64,000 bases of DNA from an uncultured Dongia sp. GTDB lineage: Bacteria; Pseudomonadota; Alphaproteobacteria; Dongiales; Dongiaceae. The notes below the pieces were generated by a model. It was not told where the DNA came from. It did not search any database and saw only the letters and a program-made list of their open reading frames with translations. Below, in pieces: positions 3,646 through 63,971 of this stretch. Location: assembly GCA_936916975.1 (NCBI GenBank), contig CAKZGO010000012.1, forward strand, positions 1,775 to 65,774, written 5' to 3'. The translations under genes and the position numbers were made by a program. Within the stretch, counting starts at the first letter, position 1; each line of letters starts with the position of its first letter.

Positions 3646-3669
3646 CGACCGTCTCCCTGCTTGCTTTAC

Positions 3670-4806: not shown

Positions 4807-4822
4807 GTTCCCCTCCCTGCCG

Positions 4823-7522: not shown

Positions 7523-7563
7523 ACGCGCGGGTTGGCATGGGTCAGGGGCTTGGACCCGCGCGT
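7523..7563 (+). promoter_or_regulatory. Perfect 10-bp GC-rich inverted repeat (ACGCGCGGGT-N21-ACCCGCGCGT) in the long potE upstream region
   Basis: Read directly: arms at 7523-7532 and 7554-7563. A TTGACG hexamer overlaps its left edge (7520-7525) and a short T-run (cgttttc) follows 13 nt downstream. Confidence 0.4.
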
Positions 7564-7818
7564 GCAGGATATGGGTATCGTTTTCATGCTGCAACTGCGC
7601 TGGCCGTTCCCGCGCCGCATGATGTTTTCGCCCGTTCGACTACGCAGCGACGCATTAAAACCTACTGCTCGGAAGCCTAACGATAACCTGCATCCATCTG
7701 GCAATGCTCAGTTAGAAAAAATACGAGCCCCGAAACAAGTTGGTAATTCGCTCAAGCCGTAGCTGTCTCGCTCGTCATAACGCATCATGACGGCGCAGCC
7801 TTCCGAAAGGAGCTTCAG

Positions 7819-9263: not shown

Positions 9264-10070
9264 CTAACCGCCACGCTGTGGCTGCCACGCCTGCGCCCGA
9301 CGTTGCGCCTCATCCATCTGCGACGGGGTCATCAGGCGCCGCGCCATATCGATGCTCTGCGGCGCATCCGGGTCACCGCTCTTGGACGCCAGGATGAACC
9401 ACATCATGGCCTCGACATAATCTTGGCCGACCCCCTGCCCGTCGGCATACATGGCACCTAGATTGTTCTGGGCCGTGGCATGACCCTGATCCGCCGCGCG
9501 GCGATACCATGTCATGGCATCGGCATCGCTTTGTGCGACGCCACGACCAAAATCATACATGACACCAAGCTTGAACTGGCCCTTGGCATAGCCTTGTTCG
9601 GCTGCCAGCCGATACCATTTGACGGCTTCGGCGTTATCCAGGGCGACGCCGTCGCCATTCGCATACATGACGCCAAGATTGAAACATGCTTCGACATAGC
9701 CCTGCTCCGCGGCCAGGCGATACCACTTGGCAGCTTCAGCATAGTCCTTGGGGACGCCCTGGCCCAGCCGATGTAGCTGCCCCAGATTGAACTGCGCGGC
9801 GCCGTATCCTTGCGCCGCCGACAGCAAATACCATTTCCGGGCCTCGACGGGGTCCAGCGGGACTCCGCTGCCATGCGCGAACATGATGCCAAGACTATTT
9901 TGAGCACGGGCGTCGCCCTGCTCCGCCACCGGACGCAGCAGCGCCAGGGCCGTGGCAAAATCCCCCTGCGCCTGCGCAGCCAGGCCGTCATCCACCTGGT
10001 CCGCCATCGCGATATCCGCGACCAGCAGAGAAAGCACCAGCGCCACGGCTGAGATCTTGATGACCTGCAT
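9264..10070 (-). CDS. Secreted Sel1-repeat (TPR-like) protein
   Basis: 268 aa with a signal peptide. It has tandem ~36-aa Sel1 units (A..WYRLAAEQGY..AQFNLG.MY..G.GV..D...A.KW). Confidence 0.85.
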   Translation of the reverse strand: MQVIKISAVALVLSLLVADIAMADQVDDGLAAQAQGDFATALALLRPVAEQGDARAQNSLGIMFAHGSGVPLDPVEARKWYLLSAAQGYGAAQFNLGQLHRLGQGVPKDYAEAAKWYRLAAEQGYVEACFNLGVMYANGDGVALDNAEAVKWYRLAAEQGYAKGQFKLGVMYDFGRGVAQSDADAMTWYRRAADQGHATAQNNLGAMYADGQGVGQDYVEAMMWFILASKSGDPDAPQSIDMARRLMTPSQMDEAQRRAQAWQPQRGG

Positions 10071-13400: not shown

Positions 13401-16306
13401 GTGAAGGTTGGCAGGACCTCGCCATCCGTATTCTTCAACTGGGTAAAGGTCCAGTCGCCATTCGGCGAGATGCTGAGCGCGCCGATCGCCAGCTGCGGTG
13501 AGATCAGATGGCCAGCTTCGTCGAGATAGTAAGTGTAGCCGTTGCCGGTCTGCTCATAGACGGTGTTGTCAATATAGACGGATTTCACTGTAGCTGGCCG
13601 GTCGGCACCGACATTGTCATTGGCAAGAAGGTTGCCGCCAATACTCTGGTTGAGATGTTCGACGGTGAGCGTCGTCTCGTCATGGGCGACGATCATATCG
13701 TCATCGACATCGAACTTGACCGAGACGGTCTTGGTGTCGCCATCGGCATCGGTCACTGTGACGGGGACGTTGAACAGGATATCGCTCTCGGTATTCCCAT
13801 CGCCCAGGCCGCCGCCCGCCGCATCATGGCGCAAGGCCTGGTAGAGATTGAAGGCGATTTGGTTGCCGACGATGCTGATCGAGAACATCTTGTTGTCGTC
13901 GATCTGCTCGGCCTGCGAAATAACGCCGTCATTGTCGGCATCGGCATAACCGAACACGACCTGCCCATCGCCTGTGGCCACCAGCTTCACATTGGCGCCA
14001 TCGGAGGCGCGCTTCAAATCGCCGTCGATATTGCCGCTGACCGTGATGGTGGCGGGGTCGAGCGAGAGCGGGAAGGCACCGTTCGGACCGTCGGCGCCCA
14101 CATCGAAGGCCAGCGTCGCCAGAGCCTGGGTGCCGCCGATATCGTCGCTGGAGCGGGGATCGTTGTCGTTGTTGCCGCCGCCCAGCCAATCCTCGTCGAG
14201 ATAGCCGACGCCATCACCGTTGTTGGGCGAGCCTTCGTCGTCGGCATCATGGTCGTTTGTGTAGCCGACGAGGCTGATGGTGGGACCATCGTCGCGGATG
14301 GTGACGTCGAGCGGCGTTTCCACAAAATCGCCGTCGTAATCGGTGGCACGCACGATGATCGAGGCGCCCTCAGCGATCTGCAGGCCCAGGGTCGCTTCGT
14401 CGGCATCGGTGGTGTCGGCCTGGTTGACCTGATGCAGCTGGGTCAGGATGACCTGGCCGAGGCTGGGATCGATCGACAGCACGAAGACCGGGATCACCAG
14501 ATCGCCGTCCTCGGCATAGCCCTTGATCGTGTTGGCGTCGACCTGCTCGGCCTGGACCGCCAGTTCCACGCCATCCACTGTGATGGTCCAGTTGGTAAGG
14601 CCGCCGCTCAAAGGTGCCGCGGCATCGCCGATATAGAACTGGAAGGCATTGGCATAGGCGCCGTTGTCGCCGGCAAAGACGGTTTTGCCGGCTTCCTTGT
14701 TGCCGACATAGGCAATGGCCTGGCTGTCCCAGATGCCGGCGCGACCATCAGCGCCGAAGCTCACCGAAATAGAGGTGCTGGCGGCACCGATCGGCTGGGC
14801 ATCGGGCCAGCCGGCGGCGGCAAGTGCCTTGCCGATCTCGTAGCCATATTGTTGCGGATCGATATCCTCCGGCGCATCCTGGCCGGGAGTTTCGTCATGG
14901 ACGATGCCGGTGTCGCTGGGGGCCTTGGTGACCACAACGCTGCCTTTACCTTCGCCCTGTTCGACCCAGTCGTAATCCAGGTAGCCGAGCTCAGGCACGT
15001 CGTCGATGTCGGTGAAGACGACCGAGCCGGCAGGTGCTGGGGTCACCGAATTGTTGCTGTCCACCATGAAGAAGGGGACGTCGATGTCGAGGGCATCCAG
15101 AATGTTGCCATCGGCATCGTTGATGCCGGGGACATTGTCGACCACGCCATAGAGGGTGAAGTCGATGTCGAAACTGCTGATCGGGTCGGTGCCCTCGAAT
15201 TCACGGAAGCTGATGGTGAAGACCACCTCGACGACGGTATAGGGCTTGCCCTGGCCGTCATAGGTGACTTCGGTATAGGCGACCAACGTTTCGCCATGGC
15301 TGCCGGTGGCGCCAGGCAGAACGGCATACTTCACCTCTAGGCTATGGGACGTAAGGCCGAGGGCGGTGAGCTGGTCGATGATCGGCGTGCCGCCATTGCT
15401 GAAGCTCAAATGCCCCGGCACGTCGCCAAAGAAGTTCACCTGGGCGACGGCGGTACTGCTCAGCGGCTCGCGGTCCAGATCGACGCCTTCGGGCGACGGC
15501 TCCGGCAGGCTGGGCGCGTTCTGCGAGCCATCTTCATGGTCGTCAGCGTCAAAGGGATCGTTGCCCTGTTCCTCAGGTCCCGCCCAATAGACATTGGGCT
15601 GGCCGCCGATGAGTTTGCCGAGGGCGATCAGCACATGGGAGGGGTAGGGATCGAGTTCCTTGGCCGCCGAGAATTCTTCGTTACGTTCGAGGTCGTCTTC
15701 ATTGACGACCTGGCCAGGGGTGACGCTGACCAGCGTGGGCGACGTATTGATCTCGTCGTTTTCCTCCAGGCGGTCGAACGCGCGCTGGATCAAGCCGTAT
15801 TGCAGTTCCGTGGCGCTGAGGCCGCCCACGGCGTTGAGACCGCCGATGCCGGCATTGGGATCGAAAGGGGCAAAGAGGCCGCCATTGTTGTCGACGCCAC
15901 TGCCCTGGTCGCCGGCGGCGGGACCTGCCGCCGTCGCAATGTCGATCGAGGGATCTGTCGCCGCGACCACGCTCGCCACGTCGACCGTGGTTCCGTCTTT
16001 GTCGAGCAGGGTGACCGGGGCTTCCGCCGTGGCGGCGGTGTAACCCAGCAGAATGACCGTGACCTCGCCGACCTTCACGGCGAGGTTGCCGTTGCCATCG
16101 TCAAGGCGGGCCATCATCCCGTCCTGGGCGAAGGGCAGGGACAGGATCTCGCCCGGCGTCACCTGGATCCGGACGATTGATTCACCCGCCGCGATCTGGA
16201 TCTGGGTAGCGCTCTGGGTCGGAATTACCCGCTCCACATCGCTTTCATGAACGACCGGCGCCACATCAGCATTGTCGGAATGATTGAAATTGGCATCAGT
16301 CGCCAT
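10460..16306 (-). CDS. Giant (~1,948 aa) T1SS-type RTX repeat adhesin, LapA-like
   Basis: The ORF track gives 1,995 aa (to 16447). I prefer ATG 16304-16306, which has GGGGGAG 7 nt upstream. It contains many Ca-binding D.DGD-type repeat modules (VTDADGDT, AQDADGDTDS, YTDGDGDT, TDGDGDS, IKDADGSTDS). C-terminal RTX nonapeptides are present (GSGGDDILYGG, GGGGNDWLVFG), followed by an acidic secretion-signal-like tail. The N-terminal ~120 aa are followed by ATAAGP (nt 15923-15934). Confidence 0.85.
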   Translation of the reverse strand: MATDANFNHSDNADVAPVVHESDVERVIPTQSATQIQIAAGESIVRIQVTPGEILSLPFAQDGMMARLDDGNGNLAVKVGEVTVILLGYTAATAEAPVTLLDKDGTTVDVASVVAATDPSIDIATAAGPAAGDQGSGVDNNGGLFAPFDPNAGIGGLNAVGGLSATELQYGLIQRAFDRLEENDEINTSPTLVSVTPGQVVNEDDLERNEEFSAAKELDPYPSHVLIALGKLIGGQPNVYWAGPEEQGNDPFDADDHEDGSQNAPSLPEPSPEGVDLDREPLSSTAVAQVNFFGDVPGHLSFSNGGTPIIDQLTALGLTSHSLEVKYAVLPGATGSHGETLVAYTEVTYDGQGKPYTVVEVVFTISFREFEGTDPISSFDIDFTLYGVVDNVPGINDADGNILDALDIDVPFFMVDSNNSVTPAPAGSVVFTDIDDVPELGYLDYDWVEQGEGKGSVVVTKAPSDTGIVHDETPGQDAPEDIDPQQYGYEIGKALAAAGWPDAQPIGAASTSISVSFGADGRAGIWDSQAIAYVGNKEAGKTVFAGDNGAYANAFQFYIGDAAAPLSGGLTNWTITVDGVELAVQAEQVDANTIKGYAEDGDLVIPVFVLSIDPSLGQVILTQLHQVNQADTTDADEATLGLQIAEGASIIVRATDYDGDFVETPLDVTIRDDGPTISLVGYTNDHDADDEGSPNNGDGVGYLDEDWLGGGNNDNDPRSSDDIGGTQALATLAFDVGADGPNGAFPLSLDPATITVSGNIDGDLKRASDGANVKLVATGDGQVVFGYADADNDGVISQAEQIDDNKMFSISIVGNQIAFNLYQALRHDAAGGGLGDGNTESDILFNVPVTVTDADGDTKTVSVKFDVDDDMIVAHDETTLTVEHLNQSIGGNLLANDNVGADRPATVKSVYIDNTVYEQTGNGYTYYLDEAGHLISPQLAIGALSISPNGDWTFTQLKNTDGEVLPTFTFSYTAQDADGDTDSAEFSFTLKHFQPATFEDETAIIDEDGLPNGSYDDPAAPTNDGTPGDDVGGHQVNNLPDPATEAVFRNTLGNGFNWNGDVGAITFTFDEVQIAKIVLLDGTVLTLANVEGNGTGHVTVWAGEPGNSDKVLEFNVIDNATAVYEVELFSPIKHPAQDNPQTQNAETYFEDNVLLPVTVTATNGGGAPSHTLTMSIDDDFIKQWGWGHAGPGLIENSEVYQWIDEDFVGNGNQDKDAQGNSNWDTNGDDPFFNVSPGSVIATNVGKGHLSAIFGADGPGELPYGLAIIAPGTAIGANYWGAGNPLETTAGSALKVLSSSATELVIADNSNNPVMTLTIDQVTGTYTFTQIQPLDHHGIDTEDNIYLRFGVSYTDGDGDTRLDDIGFVIDDDGPETQNSTSGVSFVVDEATPATDDTEGYSWMFHPVNYGADGPGTVSYSLTGIDGQPLADTVTTYKDAASGEFIKLHQVDANTIEGRTAIGGELVFVVSLGAQAVKFDLQRSIDHTGEQDSFKYLSLPIHVTQTATDGDGDSAQATATANMSVRVEDAGPDAVDDGTYAITQTGTFVTNALTANDEFGADGPGQVTKVTFNGTDYLMSGASLSIDVTGGKLTVNSDGSWFFEQPNNLPVPTTHQFSYTIKDADGSTDSATFAVALRTDMPVTAVNDWLITSETQFMSIPTDWLVRNDIDDHKYLLDILNAQSPGNTLHVSAVSSHVEFDLNPQGLNPGANSYPFPDSLFTYTVTDEVGHSDQGGTLVDYVLTYNVAFDNNQVTGTHNGDIIIGNEFGETLSGSGGDDILYGGRDPGFPVTDMLDGGGGNDWLVFGPSDILQGGLDFDTVRFEKFSLANVDLDHSGADFVGRIHDVEAFDLRTSGAPANFGNHTDGDNGLSAQDVIDMTDANDTLYILGRGDGEAGPGLDDKVYLDGVWNQNGQVSIVDPTGATSDYITFLKYTSGTATLYIQNTIDVD

Positions 16307-50480: not shown

Positions 50481-51368
50481 CTAAGCGGGCGCTCCGATAG
50501 ACAGCAGATCTGTCTGCCGGTCCTGTCCGTCCAATGTGCGGCAGGCCTGCCGCCAATAGCTTTCCTTCAACTCGGTGCCGACGAACTTGCGCTTGAGCTT
50601 CAACGCGACGTGACCCTCCGATCCGATGCCCATGAACGGCGACAGCACCGTGTCTCCGGGATTGCTCCACAGGATGATGGCGCGGTCGATGACGTCGAGC
50701 TGCAGTGGGCACAGATGACGCTCGTCAGAGCCTTCACGCGCCAGCTTGACATTGAGCACGTTGGATTGGTTAACCGTCATCCACACGGGCGAGGCCCATT
50801 CCTGCCACTGCGATACCGAGAATTCCTCGGGCCGATGGCTGATCGGCGACGCATTCTCGCCGGGCTTCACGAAGGTCAGGAGATAGTCCGGCATGCCGCC
50901 GCGCGACTTGGCGCTGTCTTTCTGCAACTGCTTGTAGAGCAACCCGACATGCTTGGTGCGGGTCATCTCGGTGACCGGGCATTTCCAGATCGTGCGGCGC
51001 GAATGCAAGATCCACCCCGCCTCTTCATGGATGCGGATGATGTCGCCGCTGAAATCCTTGATGCCGACAACGCCGTCCTTCCATTTTGTCATCGGCAGAT
51101 CGGAGCAATGCACGGCAGTGAGACGCCCCGGCTTGGTGACACGGAATTTCTCCTTCACCAGATAGGCATAGTGCTGCGCGAACTCTTCATCGGTCGAGTT
51201 GCCCATATCGGCTGCACTCTCCGAATAGACGAAGAGCGAGCCGAAGGGCGGCGAATAGACCGAGAAATCGATGAACGCATCCGGCATCTGGCTGATGATG
51301 TCGACACAATCGCCATGATAGGCGGCAAACTCCAGCCCATGGGCCTCATTCAAGCAACGGATAGCCAT
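50481..51368 (-). CDS. DNA methyltransferase, N4/N6 beta-class (PF01555-like)
   Basis: 295 aa. Motif IV SPPF precedes motif I (SPFMGIGSE), and YHGDC is near the N-terminus. This is the circular permutation typical of beta-class amino-methyltransferases. Confidence 0.8.
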   Translation of the reverse strand: MAIRCLNEAHGLEFAAYHGDCVDIISQMPDAFIDFSVYSPPFGSLFVYSESAADMGNSTDEEFAQHYAYLVKEKFRVTKPGRLTAVHCSDLPMTKWKDGVVGIKDFSGDIIRIHEEAGWILHSRRTIWKCPVTEMTRTKHVGLLYKQLQKDSAKSRGGMPDYLLTFVKPGENASPISHRPEEFSVSQWQEWASPVWMTVNQSNVLNVKLAREGSDERHLCPLQLDVIDRAIILWSNPGDTVLSPFMGIGSEGHVALKLKRKFVGTELKESYWRQACRTLDGQDRQTDLLSIGAPA

Positions 51369-54393: not shown

Positions 54394-54606
54394 TCATATC
54401 ACTTCGCCTTTCAGAAAGAACCGGCCGTGGCCATCGGACATAAGAACCCCGTGACCGACCAGCCGTAGCCATGTGACCGGAGCGATCCCGCCGGTAACTT
54501 CGCCCATCGCCAGCATATGGCCATCTTTGTCGATGACACCCTGTCTGCCACGTTGTTTGATCCACTCAACGGCCTTTGACTGTGCTGCGGTTAGCTTATG
54601 GCTCAT
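54394..54606 (-). CDS. Hypothetical early protein
   Basis: 70-aa ORF overlapping the stop of the C5 methyltransferase gene by 4 nt. Confidence 0.45.
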   Translation of the reverse strand: MSHKLTAAQSKAVEWIKQRGRQGVIDKDGHMLAMGEVTGGIAPVTWLRLVGHGVLMSDGHGRFFLKGEVI

Positions 54607-56522
54607 GCGACCTCGCTTCCCGGCGCAGCCAAGTCATCATTGGCTGCGCCGGCTTCCGCGAAGTTCGCGCGCACCAGAGCCTCGGCAATCGGTGGGCAGA
54701 CGCTGTTGCCGCAGCGGCCGATCTGTGCGGTCTTGGTAATGGGTGTGCCATCGGCTGCGCGATCGATGATGTACGAATCCGGGAACCCCTGCGCGCGGAA
54801 CAACTCGCGCGGTGTCAGCATCCGCATGCCGATATCGACGATCTGGTATTCCTCGCCCTTCACCGTGACGAGGCCGAAGCGCGCCTTGTCGGTCGCGGTG
54901 TGCAGGGGCGACAACAGATCCTGACCGTGTTCCGCGCTACCGAAATACTTGATGAGGAAGGCGCGGACCTCACCGATGTGGAAACCACCTGCGGTGACAG
55001 TCGGCATGGGGTCATCGACCGGTTGTCCATCCTTGCAGGTGCCGCGCAGCTTAATGAGATGACTGGCGACGATTTGCTGCTGCGCGCCGCTTTGCGTCAC
55101 GGTCGACACGGGATCATCTGCAGCGCGCCCGGCGCCTTCGTTATAGCCGCCATTGTGCTGTGCCAGGAAGGCGGCAACGACGGCGTGACGGTTCTCCGTC
55201 GTTTGGGTACGTAGTGGATCATCTAGTGATGCACTACGATCCGTTCCCCCACTGCCTTCTCCGTAATATGCCGACAAGTGTGCAGACACCAGGCCGATGG
55301 GCGCACTGCCGCCGGGTCGCTTGATAAAGCTGTTGGCCGTCACCGTATGCATAGGCTCGTCGATGCCGTGGCCTGTGCTGTTGGCCCGGAATTTGGTGAT
55401 GTGCGGCACCACCAGCGCATGCTTGACGCCGCCAGCGACGACTGTGCCGAGCGGCTTCTCGATATCGAGTGAGCGCGGCGCCTGCCCTTCCCGCTCGCCA
55501 TAGCCCGTCTGAATCAGCGTTGCTGTCGCCAGGCAAGCATCGGCTTTGGCTGTCATCGTGGCGAGTGGTTCATCGCCACCACGGGGCCTGGACTGTGCGG
55601 CCCGACCGCCGCAACCGACCACCGTCGGCACGACCAACGCCATCTCGCCCCGCTGCGCGGTCGTGATGGTCCGCAACGGTTCGGATGTCGGGTGGACGCG
55701 CGTGTCGCCATGATGTGTCACGGGCACGATGAACGGTTCGGCGGCATCGATCACATAGCGCTTCACGCCGCGCGCGATCCGCTTCAACGTATTTTCTGCC
55801 AATGGCTTCTTGCGCTCGAAGATGGACGGGCACGGGATGGCCCAGTCGATGCAGTCGGCGGCCGTGCGGTATGGCAGCAGGCCGGAACCTTTGGGACCAT
55901 GTGTCGGCTTTGGCCACACGATCGGCAGGCCGTCACAGCGGGCAATCAGAAACAGCCGCTTGCGGATCGTCGGCGCGCCATAATCGCTGGCGCGCAACTC
56001 GCGCCAGTCGACCTGATAGCCGAGCGACTTTAGCCGGGCAACCCAACGGCGGAAGGTAACGCCCTTCTGCAGCGGGCATGGCATCAGCTTGCCGTCATCG
56101 GTCGTGACCAATGGTCCCCAATCGCGGAATTCCTCGACATTCTCCAGCATGATGACGCGCGGGCGCTCCAACTTCGGCAGCGCGGCATAGCGGATCACGA
56201 CCCAGGCGAGGTCGCGGATATGCCGCTCAACCGGCTTGCCGCCCTTGGCCTTGGAGAAATGCTTGCAGTCGGGGCTGAACCAGGCAAGGCCGATCGGCCG
56301 GGCCTTGCCGCTGGCATCGCGCGTGGCGTCGCGCGGATGCACGGACCATACGGATTGGCATAGGTGATTGGTATGGGGGTGATTGGCCGCATGCATCGCC
56401 ACCGCGGCGGGATCGTGGTTCACGGCAACATCGATGGCGCGGCCCAAGGCCGCTTCGATCCCTGTCGATGCGCCGCCACCGCCCGCAAAATTATCGACGA
56501 CGATTTCCCCCGGCAGCAGCAT
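54603..56522 (-). CDS. DNA (cytosine-5) methyltransferase
   Basis: 639 aa with motif I DNFAGGGG, the PC motif FSPDCKHFS, ENV (MLENVEEF), RELFRAQGFPDSY and GNSVCPP. A long variable target-recognition region lies between them. Confidence 0.88.
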   Translation of the reverse strand: MLLPGEIVVDNFAGGGGASTGIEAALGRAIDVAVNHDPAAVAMHAANHPHTNHLCQSVWSVHPRDATRDASGKARPIGLAWFSPDCKHFSKAKGGKPVERHIRDLAWVVIRYAALPKLERPRVIMLENVEEFRDWGPLVTTDDGKLMPCPLQKGVTFRRWVARLKSLGYQVDWRELRASDYGAPTIRKRLFLIARCDGLPIVWPKPTHGPKGSGLLPYRTAADCIDWAIPCPSIFERKKPLAENTLKRIARGVKRYVIDAAEPFIVPVTHHGDTRVHPTSEPLRTITTAQRGEMALVVPTVVGCGGRAAQSRPRGGDEPLATMTAKADACLATATLIQTGYGEREGQAPRSLDIEKPLGTVVAGGVKHALVVPHITKFRANSTGHGIDEPMHTVTANSFIKRPGGSAPIGLVSAHLSAYYGEGSGGTDRSASLDDPLRTQTTENRHAVVAAFLAQHNGGYNEGAGRAADDPVSTVTQSGAQQQIVASHLIKLRGTCKDGQPVDDPMPTVTAGGFHIGEVRAFLIKYFGSAEHGQDLLSPLHTATDKARFGLVTVKGEEYQIVDIGMRMLTPRELFRAQGFPDSYIIDRAADGTPITKTAQIGRCGNSVCPPIAEALVRANFAEAGAANDDLAAPGSEVA

Positions 56523-57099: not shown

Positions 57100-57579
57100 T
57101 TATTTCCGCCCGTTCTTCGCCGCCTTGGCGATGGCGGCGCGCACATCGTCGAGCTGCTTCTGCGCGACCTTGAGGGCCTTGGTGAGGGCGGCGTTCTCGG
57201 TAGGCGAGATCGAGGCGCCCTCATCGGACCCAAGGTCATTAGCCCTGCACACCAGGCCGTGAAAGCCACCGACGGCCTCGCCCAATTCCAGGGCTTCGAA
57301 CATCACGCCGCGCAGCTTGGGATCGTCGCCGCGGCCGACCAGCTTCAGCTGCTCGGCATAGGCCGAGAGAAACGGTGGTTCGTTCCCTGCAGCAAGACAC
57401 GCGGCATCGATCTGCAGGCAGTTGTGAATCGTCGGGCGCCCGTCATGGTCCGGGTTGGTCCAGTTGCGCACCGAACCGGTGCCGCGATCAGCGATAGCCG
57501 CGACCTGTTCGGCACCGAGAAAATGGATGGCAGCAAGGGCCGCCGCCTCGAACGAGGCCGCGTCACGCAGTCGGACCAT
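57100..57579 (-). CDS. Early regulatory protein candidate (CII position)
   Basis: I take ATG 57577-57579 (MVRLRDAASF...), 159 aa. It is the second gene of the rightward-type early operon, after the cro-like gene. Assigned by position only. Confidence 0.35.
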   Translation of the reverse strand: MVRLRDAASFEAAALAAIHFLGAEQVAAIADRGTGSVRNWTNPDHDGRPTIHNCLQIDAACLAAGNEPPFLSAYAEQLKLVGRGDDPKLRGVMFEALELGEAVGGFHGLVCRANDLGSDEGASISPTENAALTKALKVAQKQLDDVRAAIAKAAKNGRK

Positions 57580-58069
57580 GATGGATCTCCTCTTGGGTGG
57601 GTTTGTCGGGATTGGGTGTCGGTGTGGCGTCGCCGTCTGGGGTGACACCGCTTGGCAACGCACCTGCTAAAACGTCAGGTCGATTAGCGTTGTTAACCAT
57701 GGCGGGATCGGTGAGGGTGTCGGTGGCGGCGTCCCCGCCGACATGGTCGGGATTACCCCCTGGGTGAGCGCTGTCAGGAACGACGTCGCCGCAAGGCGCA
57801 TTGTCGTTCGCCGGCACACCCAGTGCAGGCAGCTTGGTGAGGCCGAAGAAATCTTCCGGCTTCAAATCGATCCCGGCAGCCCGCGCGCAACGAAGGATGG
57901 TTGGTTGAAGATCAGCAGGGATAAGGCCGTCCGTTCCGCCGCGCGCACGCGGATAGGCCCAGCAATAGACCGTCTTGGTCGTGCGGTTGACCCAGAGCGC
58001 GATGGCTTTCACCCCATCGGTCCGCGAGCCTTGGCCGCATTTCGTGATGACATGTTCCGCGATGTTCAT
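57563..58069 (-). CDS. Cro-like HTH protein with a long Pro/Asp/Thr-rich tail
   Basis: 168 aa, the first gene divergent from the repressor. The N-terminal ~75 aa fit a YdaS/Cro-type HTH pattern. ATG 58067-58069 lies 8 nt downstream of a -10 element. Confidence 0.5.
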   Translation of the reverse strand: MNIAEHVITKCGQGSRTDGVKAIALWVNRTTKTVYCWAYPRARGGTDGLIPADLQPTILRCARAAGIDLKPEDFFGLTKLPALGVPANDNAPCGDVVPDSAHPGGNPDHVGGDAATDTLTDPAMVNNANRPDVLAGALPSGVTPDGDATPTPNPDKPTQEEIHHGPTA

Positions 58070-58077
58070 GACGCCGA

Positions 58078-58098
58078 TAATTACAGATTGTGTAATTC
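58078..58098. promoter_or_regulatory. Operator O-R1: TAATTAC-N7-GTAATTC
   Basis: Inverted repeat read directly. It overlaps the spacer and -10 of the PR-like promoter. Confidence 0.65.
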
Positions 58099-58106
58099 AG
58101 CGTCAA
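58078..58106 (-). promoter_or_regulatory. PR-like promoter for the cro-like operon
   Basis: The minus strand reads TTGACG (58106-58101), 17 nt, TAATTA (58083-58078), then 8 nt to the ATG. No Shine-Dalgarno sequence is possible, so the message is leaderless or nearly so. Confidence 0.6.
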
Positions 58107-58112
58107 TAGCTG

Positions 58113-58133
58113 ATCTTACGGAACCAGTAAGAG
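58113..58133. promoter_or_regulatory. Operator O-R2 (degenerate): ATCTTAC-N7-GTAAGAG
   Basis: It has the same TTAC-N7-GTAA core and the same 21-bp geometry, centred 35 bp from O-R1. It abuts the -35 position of the PRM-like promoter. Confidence 0.45.
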
Positions 58134-58153
58134 AATTCGATTGTCTGCACCCG

Positions 58154-58159
58154 TATAAT
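58154..58159 (+). promoter_or_regulatory. PRM-like -10 hexamer TATAAT for the repressor gene (weak -35)
   Basis: A consensus TATAAT lies 6 nt upstream of the repressor ATG (58166). The 17-bp-upstream hexamer is GAGAAT, a poor -35. Confidence 0.55.
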
Positions 58160-58176
58160 TACGGGATGCGTAACAA
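58156..58176. promoter_or_regulatory. Operator O-R3: TAATTAC-N7-GTAACAA
   Basis: The left arm is perfect and the right arm matches 4 of 7 positions. It spans the repressor start codon. Confidence 0.5.
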
Positions 58177-58873
58177 GTGGCTGAAATTGCGGCTTAAAGA
58201 GATCGGCAAGACCCAAAAGGCTCTTGCGGATTTCATTGGCCTGCCCGAGCCGCGCATCACCGACATCATCCGCGGTGACCGGCGCGTCACGGCGGGCGAA
58301 TCTGAAAAGATCGCCGCCTTTATTGGATGGTCGTCGAAGAAGGTTGCGCGGATGTTGGACCCGTCCTTACCGCCGCTCGACACAGAACTAGATCTGATCG
58401 ATACGACTCGCGTTCCTGTCGTCGGTGTAATCGAAGCCGGTGAATGGCGGGAAGCGGTGGAATTCGCCATGGACGAGGATCAACCTTTTGTCGACGTGCC
58501 CCCGGACCCGCGCTATCCCGGAATTCGGCGTTTCGCATTGAGGGTCAATGGGCCGTCGATGAACCAGCTCTACCCGGACGGCAGCCATGTCATCGTCGTA
58601 CCCGCCATGGATCTCGGTGATGGTTGGCGACCAAATAACGGTCAGCGAGTTGTGGTTCAACGCACGAATGACACTGGCGGCGTCGAAACGACCGTCAAGG
58701 AATTCATGGTGCGCGAGGACGGTCAAACATTTCTGGTGCCTCGCTCGACCGATCCCACCTTCGTGGCTTGGCCTGTGCCCGCGTTCTGGGATGGGGATGG
58801 CGAGTTTGAGGAGCACAGCGATAACATTCGCGTCACTGCATTGGTAACTCAGCGGCTAACCAACGAGCCTTAA
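58166..58873 (+). CDS. CI-type prophage repressor (HTH plus S24 LexA-like autopeptidase)
   Basis: I take ATG 58166-58168 (MRNKWLKLRLKEIGKTQKALADFIGLPEPRITDIIRG...), 235 aa. The C-terminal S24 domain carries Ser in VNGPSM and Lys in TTVKEF. Confidence 0.88.
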   Translation: MRNKWLKLRLKEIGKTQKALADFIGLPEPRITDIIRGDRRVTAGESEKIAAFIGWSSKKVARMLDPSLPPLDTELDLIDTTRVPVVGVIEAGEWREAVEFAMDEDQPFVDVPPDPRYPGIRRFALRVNGPSMNQLYPDGSHVIVVPAMDLGDGWRPNNGQRVVVQRTNDTGGVETTVKEFMVREDGQTFLVPRSTDPTFVAWPVPAFWDGDGEFEEHSDNIRVTALVTQRLTNEP

Positions 58874-59301
58874 AACACCACATTCCGCAGCGCATGGGGT
58901 GGAACGTCGCGGCCGCAATAGCGACACACATTCGCTTCCAGCCGGATGATCTCAGCACAGTGCGGACATTTCTTCGAATCGTCCGCCGAATGCCCGGGTG
59001 CTATTGTAATTTCAGGGCGACGAGGCAACGTTAAAACAACTATCAACATCAAGAGACCAGCGCCGCCACTACACATGACGTGAATGGCGTCATTGAAGTA
59101 AGGGCGATAAATGAGAGGCGAATTAATCATGTGGACCACGATGTAGAAAAAAAGCCAACTGCTGTATGACAAGAATATCGTGATGGCGGCCCAATAGGCG
59201 CCGGTTCTGCCTTTAACGAATTGAGCAGTGGCACCGATCGCGATTCCCAAGACAAGTCCGGTCCAAGAGAACGATCCAGCCAGGTATGGTGATTCAACCA
59301 T
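58870..59301 (-). CDS. Membrane protein (about 4 TM) with C-terminal zinc ribbon; unknown function
   Basis: 143 aa with hydrophobic segments and CPHCAEIIRLEANVCRYCGRDV at the C-terminus. Its stop codon overlaps the repressor stop in TTAA (58870-58873). The region is low in GC. Confidence 0.65.
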   Translation of the reverse strand: MVESPYLAGSFSWTGLVLGIAIGATAQFVKGRTGAYWAAITIFLSYSSWLFFYIVVHMINSPLIYRPYFNDAIHVMCSGGAGLLMLIVVLTLPRRPEITIAPGHSADDSKKCPHCAEIIRLEANVCRYCGRDVPPHALRNVVF

Positions 59302-59337: not shown

Positions 59338-60033
59338 CTATTGCCATCCACAAGCCATCCGCAGTGGCGCGATAGCAGTATCCAATCCAGCCACATCGAA
59401 CTCCGCGAGAAGAGATCCGCTGTTGATTGGGGCAACCTCAATTAGCAGCGTTTTGGCGGCTGCTAGTTCTTTGGCAAAGACAATCGCACCCGGGTAAAAG
59501 ATGGACCGATTGTCTGTCGATCCACCCCACAGCTTTTCACGCAACTTCTTTTTATCGATCCGACTTTTGACATAGTGTTCCCGGTGAAACCAATGTTGGC
59601 CAATCGAGAAAATCACGCTCGTAACGTCATCCTTGCAGCGAATGAACAGCAACGCCCGTGCGGTTCCGCCGCGATCATCGGACATATAGTTTTCTGAGAA
59701 CAAACTTAGATAAATATTCACGGTGTCACTGATCTTCGACACCTCTTGCTCGACGCTCCAGCCATTACCGGTCGGTAAGGCGGCCACTGCACTATCAATC
59801 TCAGCGGGCGTGGCCCGGCGTGCTGACTTTGGTTTATCCACCTTAGTCGGAGCGATCGGTGGCGGCAGAGCGCCGTTGCCCACAGTCACACCCTTCTCGT
59901 CCATGCACAAAACATCAGTACCCAGTTGAACCGGTTTCATGCAGCCAGGTAGCGGCGCGGATTGGGGTTGTTCGGCCGATGCGATCGAAGCCGACACAAT
60001 CAGAACAAGCGACACCACCACCCATAGCCGCAC
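59338..60033 (-). CDS. Secreted/periplasmic protein, unknown function
   Basis: The track ORF starts at GTG 60039. I prefer GTG 60031-60033 (GGGAGG 5 nt upstream), giving (M)RLWVVVSLVLIVSASIASAEQ, a signal peptide, and 231 aa. The region is low in GC. Confidence 0.6.
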   Translation of the reverse strand: MRLWVVVSLVLIVSASIASAEQPQSAPLPGCMKPVQLGTDVLCMDEKGVTVGNGALPPPIAPTKVDKPKSARRATPAEIDSAVAALPTGNGWSVEQEVSKISDTVNIYLSLFSENYMSDDRGGTARALLFIRCKDDVTSVIFSIGQHWFHREHYVKSRIDKKKLREKLWGGSTDNRSIFYPGAIVFAKELAAAKTLLIEVAPINSGSLLAEFDVAGLDTAIAPLRMACGWQ

Positions 60034-60133: not shown

Positions 60134-60154
60134 AAATTACAGCTTCCGTAATTT
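60134..60154. promoter_or_regulatory. Operator O-L1: AAATTAC-N7-GTAATTT
   Basis: Perfect 7-bp arms with a 7-bp spacer, read directly. Confidence 0.65.
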
Positions 60155-60158
60155 TTCC

Positions 60159-60188
60159 TTGACGGCGTAATTACAGATATCGTAATTA
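60159..60188 (+). promoter_or_regulatory. PL-like rightward promoter
   Basis: TTGACG (60159-64), 18 nt, TAATTA (60183-88). It uses the same hexamers and the same operator placement as the PR-like promoter. Confidence 0.55.
60168..60188. promoter_or_regulatory. Operator O-L2: TAATTAC-N7-GTAATTA
   Basis: Perfect 7-bp arms, centred 34 bp from O-L1. It overlaps the spacer and -10 of the PL-like promoter. Confidence 0.7.
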
Positions 60189-60242
60189 TTGATCACCGCC
60201 GGTTTCCCCCAGCGGTTGCGAGTGTCGTTCCCTCCACTCGAC

Positions 60243-60315
60243 GGCGGCCCCGGTTCCCTGTCTCCCCTCCCTGGGACGTGACGGGACCCTCCCTGACCGG
60301 GGCCGCCGCTTTTCT
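60243..60315 (+). terminator. Long hairpin with U-tract about 50 nt downstream of the PL-like start (terminator or structured RNA)
   Basis: A 12-bp perfect GC stem, GGCGGCCCCGGT (60243-54) / ACCGGGGCCGCC (60296-60307), encloses a 41-nt loop containing three TCCCTG repeats. GCTTTTCT follows. Confidence 0.45.
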
Positions 60316-60349
60316 GGGACCGCTGATCAAGGATCGTTATGCCTTACGC

Positions 60350-60649
60350 TCAGTACCTGCCAGTGGCGCGCGCCTGCCCCGATGTGCGGATGTTCAAATT
60401 CGCCGCCATCTGCCGCAGTTTCTGCTCGACGTTCTCGCGCATCGTGTACCTGGAATGCGCGCTGAAACCGATCTCGCGGCTGTACTCCGCCTTGGCCTGC
60501 CGCATGGCGCCATCATGGATTTCCTTGAGCAAGGTGGTGCGGTCGATCCCATGCCGGATCATCGCACAGGCCAGCTCCTCGTTGATGATTTCCATCGCGT
60601 TGACACGGCCAAGCAGTTCTTCAAACCGATACTCCAATACTTCCGACAT
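60350..60649 (-). CDS. Hypothetical 99-aa protein
   Basis: I take ATG 60647-60649 (MSEVLEYRFEELLGRVNAMEIINEEL...). It has balanced composition and high third-position GC in this frame. The rest of the 309-aa track ORF overlaps + strand genes and looks like shadow sequence. Confidence 0.5.
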   Translation of the reverse strand: MSEVLEYRFEELLGRVNAMEIINEELACAMIRHGIDRTTLLKEIHDGAMRQAKAEYSREIGFSAHSRYTMRENVEQKLRQMAANLNIRTSGQARATGRY

Positions 60650-60684
60650 CTTGGGGTTCCAGTCTCTTTGGGTTTCGGGAGTTA

Positions 60685-60721
60685 GGCACCGGGTCTCGAC
60701 GGCGAATCGAGATCCGGTGCC
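60685..60721. repeat. 15-bp near-perfect inverted repeat GGCACCGGGTCTCGA-N7-TCGAGATCCGGTGCC
   Basis: Read directly, with one mismatch. It lies in the 148-bp gap between divergent genes 60350-60649 (-) and 60798 (+). Confidence 0.6.
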
Positions 60722-60797
60722 GTCATCATATGCGCGGGCGGCGCAACTGTCCTTTTTTCCCACGATCACTTTTGCCCTTGTTGAGGAGTGCTGAGCC

Positions 60798-61100
60798 ATG
60801 TCCCGACTGTATGGCGGCGCCGGCCGCATCAAGGATAAACCTGACCTCACCGCCTTGCGCGCCGCCCTGGCGCTGGACCAGGCGCGCGCCGCCAACGGCA
60901 AGCCGCTGCATGGTGCCGCCCGTCTCCAGGCCCGCATCACCGCGATGGCCGAGGAGATCGTGGCCCGCACGATCGCCAACGACAATTGCACCGCCGCCGA
61001 TCTGCTGCAGGCGGGCTTTGCCCAGGCCGACATCGACGCCCTGGGTGCGCGGGCCGTTGAACGTGCCCGCTTGCGCGCGCCCAATCTGCGCGTCGCGTGA
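60798..61100 (+). CDS. Hypothetical early-left protein
   Basis: 100 aa with GAGGAG 9 nt upstream of the ATG. Confidence 0.55.
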   Translation: MSRLYGGAGRIKDKPDLTALRAALALDQARAANGKPLHGAARLQARITAMAEEIVARTIANDNCTAADLLQAGFAQADIDALGARAVERARLRAPNLRVA

Positions 61101-61333
61101 GCGTGATGCTGGGCCTCTTCCGCCGCAAGCCGGCACCCGCATCGACCTTCGACGCCGACGCCTATCTGCGCGACGCGCGCCCGCCGCGCGACCTGTCGCC
61201 GGATCGGATCGCCGCCTTGCGCGCGCACTCGCCGAAGTTTGCTGAGGCTCATTCCAGCATCGCGAAGGCCGATATCCACGCCGACGAGATCCGCACCGAT
61301 CCAGCCAAGGTCGGAAGGAAGGCCGAGATATGA
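61097..61333 (+). CDS. Hypothetical early-left protein
   Basis: 78 aa. A GTG start overlaps the upstream stop (GTGA); an alternative ATG is at 61106. Confidence 0.45.
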   Translation: MSVMLGLFRRKPAPASTFDADAYLRDARPPRDLSPDRIAALRAHSPKFAEAHSSIAKADIHADEIRTDPAKVGRKAEI

Positions 61334-61914
61334 TCCTCCGCGCGATCATCCTGGCTCTCATTGCCCCGCTCCTGGCGGCGCCTATCTATGGCGACCCCGT
61401 CAGCGCAGCACCCGACTTCATGCCCGTTGCCGAATTCAATGAACCGGTCGGCCTGCGCGGCAAGGTGCCGGGCGCCAGCTATGCGTTCTGTATGGCCCAG
61501 CGTGCGTTGTGTTCCTTTGTCCTGCCGGCCCTGCCTTTGCCCGACGATGCCATGGCAATACTCAACCGCGTCAACCGCGATGTGAATGCCGGCATCGCCT
61601 TCCGTGCCGATGAGCCCAGCATAGATGCCTGGGAGATCGAACCCGTCGCCGGTGACTGCGAAGACTATGTCGTCACCAAATTGGCGCGCTTGGTGGCGGC
61701 CGGCATCCCGCGCGATACCCTGCGCCTCGCCACGGCACAGTTGCCCGATGGCCGGTTCCACATCGTGCTGGTGGCCCAGACCTGGCGCGGCTCGTTCATT
61801 CTCGACAACCGCACCGATGCGATCCTGCCGTGGCGCGGTGTCAATTATCGCTGGCTGGCCATGGAAACCAATGGCGCCGGCACGGCGATGGCGTGGCACG
61901 AGGTGCTGCCGTGA
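61330..61914 (+). CDS. Secreted transglutaminase-like cysteine peptidase (BTLCP/LapG family, PF06035-like)
   Basis: 194 aa with signal peptide MILRAIILALIAPLLAAPIYG. It has the hallmark GDCEDYVVTKL (Cys), GRFHIVLV (His) and FILDNRTD (Asp) spacing of BTLCPs. Its start overlaps the upstream stop (ATGA). Confidence 0.8.
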   Translation: MILRAIILALIAPLLAAPIYGDPVSAAPDFMPVAEFNEPVGLRGKVPGASYAFCMAQRALCSFVLPALPLPDDAMAILNRVNRDVNAGIAFRADEPSIDAWEIEPVAGDCEDYVVTKLARLVAAGIPRDTLRLATAQLPDGRFHIVLVAQTWRGSFILDNRTDAILPWRGVNYRWLAMETNGAGTAMAWHEVLP

Positions 61915-62192
61915 GCGATCTCTATCAGATCCGTCACGACGTTCCGCCACCCCGGCGCAAGCCCATCGATGCGGCTACGCGCAGGGGCAAGAAGCCCGGC
62001 AAGGTGCGGCGGACCATGGAAGCGCTGCAGATCGACGAGTATTTCGACGTGCCGCTCGCCGACTTTCCATCCTACCCGGATGTCAAGACGCTGCTGAGCC
62101 GTGTCTCCGCCATCGGGCTTCGCACGCTCGGCGCCGGCAACAGCACGACAGAGGGCCATGAGGATTTCGTCCGCGTCTGGCGGATCGCCTGA
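61911..62192 (+). CDS. Hypothetical early-left protein
   Basis: GTG 61911-13 overlaps the BTLCP stop (GTGA), giving 93 aa ((M)SDLYQIRHDVPPPRRKPIDAATRRGKKPG...). Confidence 0.45.
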   Translation: MSDLYQIRHDVPPPRRKPIDAATRRGKKPGKVRRTMEALQIDEYFDVPLADFPSYPDVKTLLSRVSAIGLRTLGAGNSTTEGHEDFVRVWRIA

Positions 62193-62220: not shown

Positions 62221-62574
62221 ATGTTTGAAACGACCGCGTTCAACCGGGTTCATGCCAATGTAAACGCATCGAACGTGGTCGATATCTCCGCCATCCGGGC
62301 ACGGCTGGCAACCGGTCAACCGATGTTCGATAAACCCACGGCCGATCAATCGGCAGCGTCCCTCCCCCACATTGGGGTTGGCGACTGGGTCAGGACCGCA
62401 ACCAACATCGTCGGCTTTGTGAAACGCACCTATGTCGATGACAAGGGTGTGCCGCGCGCCGTCATCACCAACGGCAGTGGCATAGAGCAGAGCCACGCGA
62501 TCCGCACCCTCACCTTGAGCGAGCGCGCCGGGTTCCACCAACCCGCACCTGTCGCCATCCAGGAGGGCTGCTGA
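62221..62574 (+). CDS. Hypothetical early-left protein
   Basis: 117-aa ORF with AAGGGGGA upstream. Confidence 0.5.
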   Translation: MFETTAFNRVHANVNASNVVDISAIRARLATGQPMFDKPTADQSAASLPHIGVGDWVRTATNIVGFVKRTYVDDKGVPRAVITNGSGIEQSHAIRTLTLSERAGFHQPAPVAIQEGC

Positions 62575-62575: not shown

Positions 62576-62899
62576 ATGGCGTCTGCCACCGATGAAATCG
62601 CCGACGACCATCCCGGCAGCTTGCAGAGCGACGGAACCAGTCGCGACGGCGACAATCGCCAGGGCGGCATCGCCGCTGATCACCTTAAATCCTTCATTGA
62701 GCGCATTGAACGGCTCGAGGAAGAGAAGGCCGCCATCGCGAACGACATCACGGAAGTCTACGCCGAGGCCAAGGGCACCGGCTTTGACGTCAAGATCATG
62801 CGCCAGCTGGTCCGCCTACGGAAGATGGAAGCCAACGACCGCAGCGAGCAAAGCGAATTGCTCGACATCTACATGCGCGCCGTCGGGATGGTGGTGTGA
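62576..62899 (+). CDS. GapR-like (DUF2312/UPF0335) DNA-binding protein
   Basis: 107 aa. [48 protein letters not shown]....[13 protein letters not shown] aligns almost residue for residue with Caulobacter GapR as I recall it ([48 protein letters not shown]...DLYLSAIG). Confidence 0.8.
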   Translation: [107 protein letters not shown]

Positions 62900-63414
62900 T
62901 GAGCTATGCACGCATGGATCACGCCGGCTGGGTTGAGAAGAACAATGTCGCCGGCAAGCGGTTGATGACGGCGACACAGCGCAAGAGCGATCGTGGATTT
63001 GCCACCGCACCGGACCAACTCTCGCCCTTCCAGGTCAAGGTGATGGATATCCTCGGCATGGTGGGTGGTGGCATCTACAATGCGCCCATTGTCTGGGAGA
63101 GCATTGATTGGGGCCGGCCATATTCAAGCGGAAAACCAGGCGCCATATCCGTGTCGTGGCGCGGCCATCTTGCAACATTCGATTTCAACCAACTTACACG
63201 CCTCGTCTTTTTGTGCCATGAAGCGCGCATTCGGTGCGCTCTCAGTCCTTGGAACCCGGGCCATCTGCGTCTGAGTTTCAGCTCCCGTACGGACGAGGAT
63301 GGTTTTAGCGACGGGCATCCGAGCCTGGATGAGGCCGTTACCACGTTTCGCGACTATCTGCCTGCCGAACATCGGATCATCTATATACCGGCGTCGACGA
63401 AAGCGGGGGCGTGA
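62896..63414 (+). CDS. Hypothetical early-left protein
   Basis: 172-aa ORF that overlaps both neighbours by 4 nt. Confidence 0.5.
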   Translation: MMSYARMDHAGWVEKNNVAGKRLMTATQRKSDRGFATAPDQLSPFQVKVMDILGMVGGGIYNAPIVWESIDWGRPYSSGKPGAISVSWRGHLATFDFNQLTRLVFLCHEARIRCALSPWNPGHLRLSFSSRTDEDGFSDGHPSLDEAVTTFRDYLPAEHRIIYIPASTKAGA

Positions 63415-63971
63415 TGGCACGCATCCGGACGGCGATCCTTGATTTCATCCGCCATCGCGTTGTCCCTGTGCGCAAGCCGGATCAGGTCATTGGCGGCAGC
63501 GACCGGCCCTACATGCTGCGCTGGTTTCTGATCCCCAAGAATCGCCTTTTCAATATCTATCTGCATCAGTTCCTGCGCGACGACGATGACCGCGCGCTGC
63601 ATGATCACCCGTGGGCCAGTATGTCCTATGTGCTGGAGACTGGCTATTGGGAGCACACGCCCAAGGGCCGCTTCTGGCGTGCACCAGGGGCCGTCGTCTT
63701 CCGTCGTGCCACCGCCCAGCACCGCATCGCGCTGCTGCGCGACGAAGGCGTGCCGGAGACGTGGGGTGGGATGTCGGCCTGGACCATCTTCATCACCGGC
63801 CCGAACGTCCGCCAATGGGGCTTCCACTGCCAGCACGGATTTGTCCACTGGCGCGACTTCACCAGCCAGGACGGCAACAGCATCGGTGCGGGCTGCGATC
63901 AATCGGCGAATGACAACGCTGCCGAGATCATTCCGTTGCAGCGGCGGCAGGGTGGCGGTCACAATGGCTGA
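63411..63971 (+). CDS. Hypothetical early-left protein
   Basis: 186-aa ORF (…LHDHPW…). No family recognised. Confidence 0.5.
   Translation: MMARIRTAILDFIRHRVVPVRKPDQVIGGSDRPYMLRWFLIPKNRLFNIYLHQFLRDDDDRALHDHPWASMSYVLETGYWEHTPKGRFWRAPGAVVFRRATAQHRIALLRDEGVPETWGGMSAWTIFITGPNVRQWGFHCQHGFVHWRDFTSQDGNSIGAGCDQSANDNAAEIIPLQRRQGGGHNG

Follow-up and report, generated by a model that had tools for sequence, protein, structure and literature searches.

A BTLCP cysteine protease of the HvyA-type branch in an apparently repressor-controlled operon of a prophage from an uncultured Dongia

The stretch of DNA analysed here, called the window below, is 64,000 nt long (contig CAKZGO010000012.1 of assembly GCA_936916975.1, from an uncultured Dongia sp.) and carries a prophage that encodes a predicted cysteine protease of the BTLCP family. 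By its sequence, the protein is a BTLCP enzyme with intact predicted catalytic residues, and it is assigned to the HvyA-type alphaproteobacterial branch of the family, not to the LapG type. An HvyA-type enzyme fixed in an apparently repressor-controlled early operon points to surface remodelling during lytic growth, not to lysogenic conversion. As the best explanation, put forward tentatively, a periplasmic HvyA-type protease timed by the phage would alter the surface of the host at an early stage of lytic growth; the process it hits would most likely be Wzy-dependent assembly of capsule or exopolysaccharide (EPS). BTLCP genes are among the commonest accessory genes of environmental phages, with a function so far undemonstrated, and the characterised bacterial branches govern different surface structures, namely adhesins (LapG and DvhG) and the capsule (HvyA). 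New here are that the enzyme is placed in the HvyA-type branch, that temperate phages form a clade in which the gene keeps its position in the accessory operon, and that the operator architecture makes control by the repressor probable.

The phage BTLCP and its branch

61330-61914, + strand: BTLCP (Peptidase_C93) gene, 194 aa, ATG start, supported by a sequence check and a profile match

The gene has a G+C content at third codon positions (GC3) of 0.79 and a codon log-likelihood ratio, scored against phage training genes, of 0.41 versus 0.15 for the open reading frame (ORF) antisense to it. A Shine-Dalgarno sequence (GGAAGGAAGG) lies upstream of the ATG. The 194-aa ORF had been quoted in an earlier note on this DNA, made from the letters alone, and it exists as quoted. 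Its product matches Pfam PF06035 (Peptidase_C93/BTLCP) over residues 45-182 with E=1.7e-30 and 106.4 bits (cutoff 27) and contains GDCEDY, FHIVLV and ILDNRTD. In an alignment of 30 sequences, the phage protein and its 29 nearest relatives, the catalytic triad is Cys110-His144-Asp159, with C110 (codon 61657-61659) and H144 invariant and D159 nearly invariant; the Cys-His-Asp arrangement recognised by the earlier note falls in these conserved columns. Residues G108, D109 and D112 and the cysteine pair C54/C61 are also invariant, and position 111, which is E in this phage, is E, N or D in the family. The LapG calcium-binding residues, which the earlier note had left to be checked, have their acidic counterparts D109/E111/D112 around C110 (D-C-E motif). 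Equivalents of these Ca-site residues were mutated in DvhG (D316/E318; PMC13090378). The N-terminus (MILRAIILALIAPLLAAPIYGDPVSA, with AP after the cut) consists of a hydrophobic stretch and a small-residue cleavage-like site. Judged by eye, it resembles a Sec signal, and signal-peptide-like N-termini were seen in the same way in all members of the phage clade described below, which agrees with the earlier proposal of a secreted type of protein.

The AlphaFold2 (AF2) model of the protein has a pLDDT of 88.2, with low confidence over residues 1-30. Its sole PDB matches at E<1e-5 are LapG structures (4u65_E and 4fgo/4fgp/4fgq), over the catalytic core, with E=1e-7, a TM-score of about 0.5 and a root-mean-square deviation of 2.0 A over 117 columns in Foldseek. 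With LapG of P. fluorescens and L. pneumophila (4U65, 4FGO) and DvhG of D. vulgaris, the phage enzyme has in common the fold, the triad, the Ca-binding D-C-E motif and a predicted periplasmic location. Unlike LapG, it has an N-terminal half with the Cys pair that has no LapG counterpart, and the solved LapGs align to it over the catalytic core only, with 34-39% identity there versus 45-58% for relatives of the alphaproteobacterial type.

The assignment to the LapG family made by the earlier note did not hold. The NCBIfam equivalog model for LapG (NF045674) gave 26 bits against a cutoff of 320 and aligned residues 78-167 only. A neighbour-joining tree was computed from 194 sequences, including 29 genuine LapG-type proteins, with 200 bootstraps. 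LapG was monophyletic in 195/200 of these and was joined with the phage protein in 0/200, and the sister of the phage protein was a sequence from a phage context in 199/200. The phylogeny proposed by the earlier note thus puts the phage protein among non-LapG BTLCPs, outside the LapG clade; it lies in an all-phage clade of seven that nests in an alphaproteobacterial group together with 36-38 of the 38 BTLCPs encoded at polysaccharide loci. Scored against group profiles, it reached 27 bits with LapG, 141.7 with polysaccharide-locus proteins, 138 with other chromosomal alphaproteobacterial proteins and 141 with other viral ones. A held-out protein from the Caulobacter HvyA locus followed the same pattern (159 bits with the polysaccharide-locus profile versus 58 with LapG). 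The motif C-x6-C, here C54-x6-C61, is present in all 38 polysaccharide-locus proteins, in 39/42 of the other chromosomal alphaproteobacterial type and in the Caulobacter protein of locus L161, and in 0/29 LapGs. The LapG reading is weakened because the enzyme clusters with non-LapG clades of the family, an outcome which the earlier note had itself named as speaking against it.

The same note had taken the enzyme to act without a LapD partner, and indeed neither genes of LapD, the cyclic di-GMP receptor, nor genes of a type I secretion system (T1SS) turned up in a scan of the window genes around those for BTLCP and the adhesin. The LapD-tryptophan pocket of LapG is missing even in the functional DvhG.

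The closest characterised proteins in kind are HvyA (CCNA_00166), SMc00998 and NGR_c12490. Like these, the phage enzyme is a BTLCP of the alphaproteobacterial branch with the C-H-D triad, the Ca-site residues and C-x6-C, and it has the N-terminus that looks Sec-like by eye. Like the HvyA-locus protein, it scores about 140 bits with the polysaccharide-locus profile, and in both cases the biology is tied to the interaction of phage and host surface. Unlike HvyA, it is encoded by a phage, outside a capsule-export locus, is 194 aa long versus 272 aa, and has about 36% core identity to the Caulobacter HvyA-locus protein. Its control is apparently by the phage repressor, and a CtrA box (TTAA-N7-TTAA) was found nowhere in the whole window.

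The accessory operon and its control

The prophage named in the earlier note is real and has genes for terminase, portal, major head, tape measure, lysozyme, DnaB, a replication initiator and a helix-turn-helix (HTH)/S24 repressor. On the minus strand, from about 58 kb down to 21 kb, the order is the gene in the Cro position, DNA methyltransferases and helicases, DnaB and the replication initiator, followed by small and large terminase, portal and major head, and then by tape measure, tail genes and lysozyme. The end of the prophage adjoins chromosomal LysR and aldo-keto reductase genes on one 72-kb contig, and the gene at the junction of phage and chromosome was also found on long contigs in several assemblies. 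The BTLCP gene lies on the opposite strand, among the following genes.

60798-61100, + strand: g100, first gene of the accessory operon, without family match; its homologue in phage L168 is 46% identical
61097-61333, + strand: g78, second gene; its stop overlaps the BTLCP start (ATGA)
61911-62192, + strand: g93; its start overlaps the BTLCP stop, and in L168 a homologue with 55% identity immediately precedes the BTLCP gene
62221-62574, + strand: g117, operon gene, function unassigned
62576-62899, + strand: GapR-like nucleoid-associated protein (DUF2312; NF010247, 117 bits), same operon as BTLCP
62899-63414, + strand: g171 (phrog_22261), operon gene
63414-63971, + strand: g185 (phrog_4786), operon gene

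The order is g100, g78, BTLCP, g93, g117, GapR, g171 and g185, with BTLCP as the third gene. Beyond the end of the window, the operon also includes a gene for a 135-aa protein and one for a phage DnaN sliding clamp (L001, 8110-9366); other contigs with this region are shorter and stop within dnaN or shortly after it. In the closest relatives with usable context (P0003-P0006), the BTLCP gene is likewise in runs of small genes on the same strand, with start/stop overlaps on both of its sides. The run in phage L169 adjoins an S24 repressor gene, and phage L168 has three further operon genes in common with this phage. The all-phage clade keeps BTLCP at the same position of the accessory operon in at least four other phages.

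The region between this operon and the replication and late genes has the features below.

57563-58069, - strand: gene in the Cro position, first of the replication/late operon
58077-58173, no strand: control region like the right operator of lambda (OR), with three operator copies (58081, 58116 and 58159) and the leftward promoter of the Cro operon, TTGACG-18-AATTAT
58166-58873, + strand: phage repressor, 235 aa (HTH_3 and Peptidase_S24), facing away from the gene in the Cro position
60137-60189, + strand: control region like the left operator of lambda (OL), with operator palindromes at 60137-60151 and 60171-60185 and the rightward promoter-like site TTGACG (60160)-18-TAATTA (60189), which has an operator in its spacer
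60350-60649, - strand: 99-aa gene, real-looking, antisense between the OL-side promoter and g100

The 15-nt operator TTACRG-N5-GTAA has exactly five sites in the 64 kb, where 0.01 would be expected. Three of them are in the interval from the Cro-position gene to the repressor gene and two at 60137-60185, between the immunity region and the BTLCP operon. Both clusters overlap outward-pointing promoter-like sites of a common design, TTGACG-18-(A)AATTA(T). In phage L169, which is heteroimmune, the operator is a different one, ATCGCATT-N4-AATGCG, which is also arranged as three plus two (L169 4691-4763 and 7035-7082), and the pair is situated 140-190 bp upstream of the L169 BTLCP operon, which continues to RecT. 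That the accessory operon is early and repressor-controlled is a well-supported inference from gene order and operator sites, because the three-plus-two operators are found here and the same layout recurs upstream of the BTLCP operon in L169.

Downstream of the OL-side promoter, there are a perfect hairpin of 13 bp with CTTTTCT after it (60242-60308), a 15-nt palindrome or hairpin (60685-60721) and a terminator-like hairpin (60736-60752) followed by a T6 run (to 60758). The stretch 60242-60797 may be a layer of antitermination or antisense control; it is not present in L169.

Two minus-strand genes, 58870-59301 and 59338-60033, lie opposite to the repressor gene in the immunity region and form the part of the window with the lowest G+C content (54%). 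The product of one is a membrane protein that has a zinc ribbon at its C-terminus, and that of the other a signal-peptide protein with a weak match to VasI, associated with the type VI secretion system, and a strong match to phrog_1848. By sequence, both look like morons expressed in lysogeny. Two unrelated minus-strand genes are found at the same place in L169.

These features bear on the proposal that the BTLCP gene is a moron or auxiliary metabolic gene (AMG) expressed in the lysogen for the benefit of the host, by surface conversion, or that it is a functionless passenger. Nishikawa et al. proposed that viral BTLCPs help host adaptation (PMC11283719), and the transcription start of the operon in this phage is uncertain. 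Against expression in the lysogen, the gene forms part of a polycistronic run whose starts and stops overlap, has the GC3 typical of the phage and is without a promoter or terminator of its own, and the operator pair sits between the immunity region and its operon. The moron-like features, 54% G+C and the opposite strand, belong to the Zn-ribbon and VasI-like genes, not to BTLCP. A decaying gene is not expected either, because the catalytic residues and the operon position are conserved across the phage clade. The whole proposal is therefore considered very unlikely.

Among the other genes of these phages, copies of alphaproteobacterial chromosome and cell-cycle factors were observed, GapR-like and DnaN in this phage and GcrA and a sigma-70 factor in L169. 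The prophage encodes two DNA methyltransferases, a 639-aa C-5 cytosine methylase fusion (54603-56522, - strand) and a 295-aa protein (50481-51368, - strand) beside its helicases. The related BTLCP-carrying phage L170 (>24 contigs) encodes, from 16384 to the end, a protein of >1038 aa with intein (PT-HINT/Intein_splicing) and LAGLIDADG domains.

Chromosomal relatives and candidate targets at the host surface

An exhaustive HMMER search at E<=1e-3 gave a family of 4,089 clusters at 50% identity; a word-indexed homology search with the phage BTLCP gave 2 relatives only. The nearest relative is 49% identical. The 80 best chromosomal matches in species-representative genomes (L088-L167) are almost all from Hyphomicrobiales. 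A Wzc- or Wzy-like gene lies within 8 kb in 38 of these 80 loci, with the order Wzc-x-BTLCP...WecG in Caulobacter (L161) and Wzy-BTLCP-x-Wzc in Bradyrhizobium (L090). A Pfam census, covering 143 neighbours at about 37 loci after de-replication, gave counts of 13 for Metallophos, 12 for Wzy_C, 7 for Wzc-type AAA_31/CbiA, 6 for Wzz/GNVR, 6 for Wza-type SLBB, 5 for Poly_export and 3 each for sugar transferases, epimerases and HlyD. Neither GGDEF, EAL nor LapD was among the 25 commonest neighbour families of this census. The gene of Caulobacter HvyA has a setting of the same kind, beside polysaccharide genes. HvyA itself is a periplasmic BTLCP that blocks capsulation in G1 cells of Caulobacter, which are thereby sensitive to phiCr30, and its Sinorhizobium orthologues, which complement hvyA, sit outside capsule-export loci (PMC4241560), as the phage gene does.

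The favoured course of events would be as follows. The phage repressor would keep the accessory operon silent in the lysogen, and after induction or infection, BTLCP would be made along with the other early accessory genes. The protein would be exported via Sec to the periplasm, where it would cleave or otherwise modify a protein of the host envelope. The likeliest class of target would be the Wzy/Wzc/Wza-dependent machinery of capsule or EPS, by analogy with Caulobacter HvyA. Building of the surface polysaccharide layer would thereby cease in the infected cell during lytic growth, and the gain for the phage could be an easier release of progeny, or fewer progeny or superinfecting phages lost on the receptor or barrier layer. 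If true, this would be a new way for a phage to manage a receptor or barrier layer from within the cell.

Several points weigh against this account. The phage clade is a long branch whose identity to other sequences is 49% or less, and the neighbour-joining tree does not settle which chromosomal group is its exact sister. The other 42 chromosomal relatives, out of 80, lack polysaccharide genes in their vicinity, and the commonest neighbour, Metallophos (calcineurin-like phosphoesterase, 13/143), is about as frequent as Wzy. Atu0252, NGR_c19800 and NGR_c36180 fail to complement hvyA, and BTLCPs of the alphaproteobacterial type are functionally diverse (PMC4241560). No target could be searched for in this host because the literature reports no substrate of HvyA; the host is an uncultured organism represented by a metagenome-assembled genome (MAG), and the 64-kb window shows no locus for capsule or EPS. 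The start and timing of transcription of the operon are uncertain in this phage because the promoter is separated from the operon by the 99-aa antisense gene and by two terminator-like hairpins, and the benefit to the phage is a conjecture.

The enzyme could instead hit another periplasmic or outer-membrane protein, such as a phage receptor or an envelope-integrity factor, and, unconnected with capsule or adhesin, bring about superinfection exclusion or keep progeny from being adsorbed by lysing cells. Lambdoid phages keep their exclusion and host-takeover genes in the early accessory operon near the immunity region, and the BTLCP gene has such a place, in the early accessory operon beside the immunity region. 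Half of the chromosomal relatives are outside polysaccharide loci, functions of BTLCPs in Alphaproteobacteria are diverse, and BTLCP genes are spread over many unrelated viral clusters (PMC11283719) and found on at least 182 IMG/VR contigs. Nothing positive speaks for any given target of this sort, and wherever a role has been characterised in the superfamily, it concerns either capsule (HvyA) or adhesins (LapG and DvhG). This alternative seems possible and rather unlikely.

The earlier note was not aware of a description as a phage function, yet phage-borne BTLCPs have been recorded before. The Rhizobium phages vB_RleS_L338C (L338C_150), RHph_I4 (EVC24_001) and P11VFA have annotated examples, and BTLCP was the most frequent 'AMG' in river single-virus genomes, where surface modification and a role in biofilm were speculated on (Nishikawa et al. 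2024, PMC11283719). No publication was found that tests the function of a phage BTLCP or ties one to HvyA or capsule. The gene studied here is like those of the Rhizobium phages and the river 'AMGs' in being phage-borne with an alphaproteobacterial or environmental host. The cultured Rhizobium phages differ from this prophage, as they are rhizobiophages of about 109 kb, and their BTLCPs are 31-35% identical to the one described here. Unlike those recorded, this BTLCP falls in a clade of its own among temperate phages and keeps a fixed place in a lambda-like, apparently repressor-controlled operon.

Among the viral structures of BFVD, a related transglutaminase-like fold was observed in Caulobacter phage CcrPW ('Transglutaminase' A0A385EA13; Foldseek E=2e-6, 18% identity) and Caulobacter phage Ccr32 (A0A1V0EDH2; E=3e-3, 23% identity). 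These phages infect the genus in which HvyA controls capsule and phage entry.

The host adhesin and its processing site

The window also encodes an adhesin of the host, which the earlier note had taken as the substrate of the phage enzyme.

10460-16306, - strand: host T1SS-type repeat adhesin, 1948 aa from MATDANF, with DUF5801/T1SS-143, Big_9/VCBS and DDxP-type module ends; chromosomal, not phage
15923-15979, - strand: processing segment of the adhesin, with a predicted helix (VASVVAAT), DP at residues 118-119, TAAG at 125-128 and PAAG at 129-132

The repeats of the adhesin include four DUF5801 (E=7e-45), T1SS_rpt_143 (118 bits versus 66) and Big_9/VCBS, with one RTX-like GGxGxD motif only. 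The sequence ATAAGP is present at residues 124-129, where the earlier note had placed it, and the second site, PAAG, begins at residue 129. The chance of finding [TAP]AA[GV] within residues 70-150 is 2-5%. Comparison of the N-terminus (15923-16306) with 15 homologues, some with as little as about 36% identity, shows no variation in D-I-x-T-A-A-G and almost none in T-D-P. The AF2 model of the N-terminus has strands at 44-101 (pLDDT 81-90), a helix at 110-116, then DP, TAAG and disorder. In substrates of LapG and DvhG, the architecture is a retention domain, a targeting helix, DP and [T/A/P]AAG (PMC13090378). The matching cleavage motif claimed by the earlier note is therefore borne out at the level of sequence and model: it is predicted to be a real LapG-type processing site and is probably functional, because its conserved helix-DP-TAAG layout matches the published substrate consensus (PMC13090378).

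Like LapA, MapA, FrhA, CraA, DvhA and the DDxP proteins, the host adhesin is a giant T1SS-143/DUF5801 protein with a beta domain, a helix and DP-[T/A/P]AAG at 118-128. Unlike LapA-like adhesins, it is without a match to a retention-module model (none of the NCBIfam models at E<=0.01), without a match to a solved N-terminal fold (no significant hit of the N-terminal model in a PDB fold search, with the best at E=0.016 to an RTX block), and without T1SS, LapG or LapD genes seen nearby. Its neighbours encode a Sel1-repeat protein, a permease, a decarboxylase, a flavodoxin-like protein and aldo-keto reductases. One N-terminal homologue, on a 26-kb contig (P0161), is a fragmented gene beside ABC substrate-binding genes. 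The family of this adhesin extends the helix-DP-TAAG site to a Hyphomicrobiales-type protein missed by current retention-module models.

The adhesin is presumably cut by some BTLCP. The host probably has a dedicated enzyme for it elsewhere in its genome, because clusters of DDxP adhesin genes in Bradyrhizobium and some Mesorhizobium include, as T1SS clusters, BTLCP- and LapD-like genes (PMC7730722). Genes for adhesin processing can be unlinked from the adhesin gene, as in Legionella. When BTLCPs linked to T1SS or LapD were sought, two plasmid-borne rhizobial loci were found to have copper/cytochrome genes or no annotation.

According to the proposal derived from the earlier note, the phage BTLCP is a LapD-independent LapG-like enzyme that cuts the adhesin between A126 and A127 in TAAG, sheds it and detaches the infected or induced cell. 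The site just described, with its 15 homologues, low chance frequency and an AF2 architecture as in LapG and DvhG substrates, is in its favour, and the host thus has a substrate-like adhesin as the hosts of these two enzymes do. DvhG, with 33% core identity to LapG, still cuts both LapA and DvhA at the di-alanine (PMC13090378), and the identity of the phage enzyme to the solved LapGs is not lower. Moreover, its catalytic and Ca-site residues are intact, and a LapD-like restraint is not encoded nearby.

Against it, the phage enzyme falls outside LapG by the equivalog model, the tree, C-x6-C and the profiles alike. About 160 loci of its relatives were searched with an HMM of the adhesin N-terminus and with the whole adhesin in blastp, and no homologue of the adhesin was found. 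In the same loci, no protein of at least 600 aa has DP..[TAP]AAG in its first 300 residues, except that this could not be judged for two giant proteins (in L122 and L165) with N-termini cut off. The neighbours of the relatives are polysaccharide genes, not T1SS or LapD genes, and unlike for LapG and DvhG, neither a LapD/DvhD partner nor a linkage to T1SS or adhesin genes was found among the relatives' loci checked. The host probably has its own adhesin protease, as argued above, and none of the 80 best chromosomal matches is in a T1SS/LapD-type context. The distance of 45 kb between adhesin and prophage gene is no functional link because unrelated chromosomal genes lie between them, namely aldo-keto reductases, a flavodoxin-like protein and a LysR regulator. 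Of the earlier claim of phage-driven shedding, an intact BTLCP without LapD partner and a genuine TAAG site have stood, whereas the enzyme is not LapG and its link to the adhesin is co-residence in one genome only. Shedding of this adhesin by the phage enzyme is unlikely. A broader version, in which an early BTLCP acts as a LapD-independent release protease that cuts DP-x5-TAAG, detaches the doomed cell before lysis and disperses the phage, and in which viral BTLCP 'AMGs' are generally phage-timed surface strippers, is a shade less probable still. If the TAAG cut were true, phage induction would be linked to biofilm dispersal.

Whether polysaccharide assembly, as favoured here, or the adhesin is the target, either outcome would help to find the substrate of HvyA, and the locus gives concrete experiments for an abundant and little-characterised class of phage accessory genes.

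The two giant repeat proteins mentioned above lie beside chromosomal BTLCP genes, in a Rhizomicrobium MAG (L122, 2-5941, >1980 aa) and in a Devosia MAG (L165, 8499-16265, >2589 aa). Their N-termini are beyond the ends of the loci, and they are without BLAST homology to the adhesin of the window. Directly downstream of this adhesin and on the same strand, there is a gene with five Sel1 repeats (9264-10070). The host flank at 2539-9168 encodes an HlyD-family membrane-fusion protein, a porin, an Orn/Lys/Arg decarboxylase (786 aa) and an amino-acid permease, and looks like an acid-stress decarboxylase/antiporter module.

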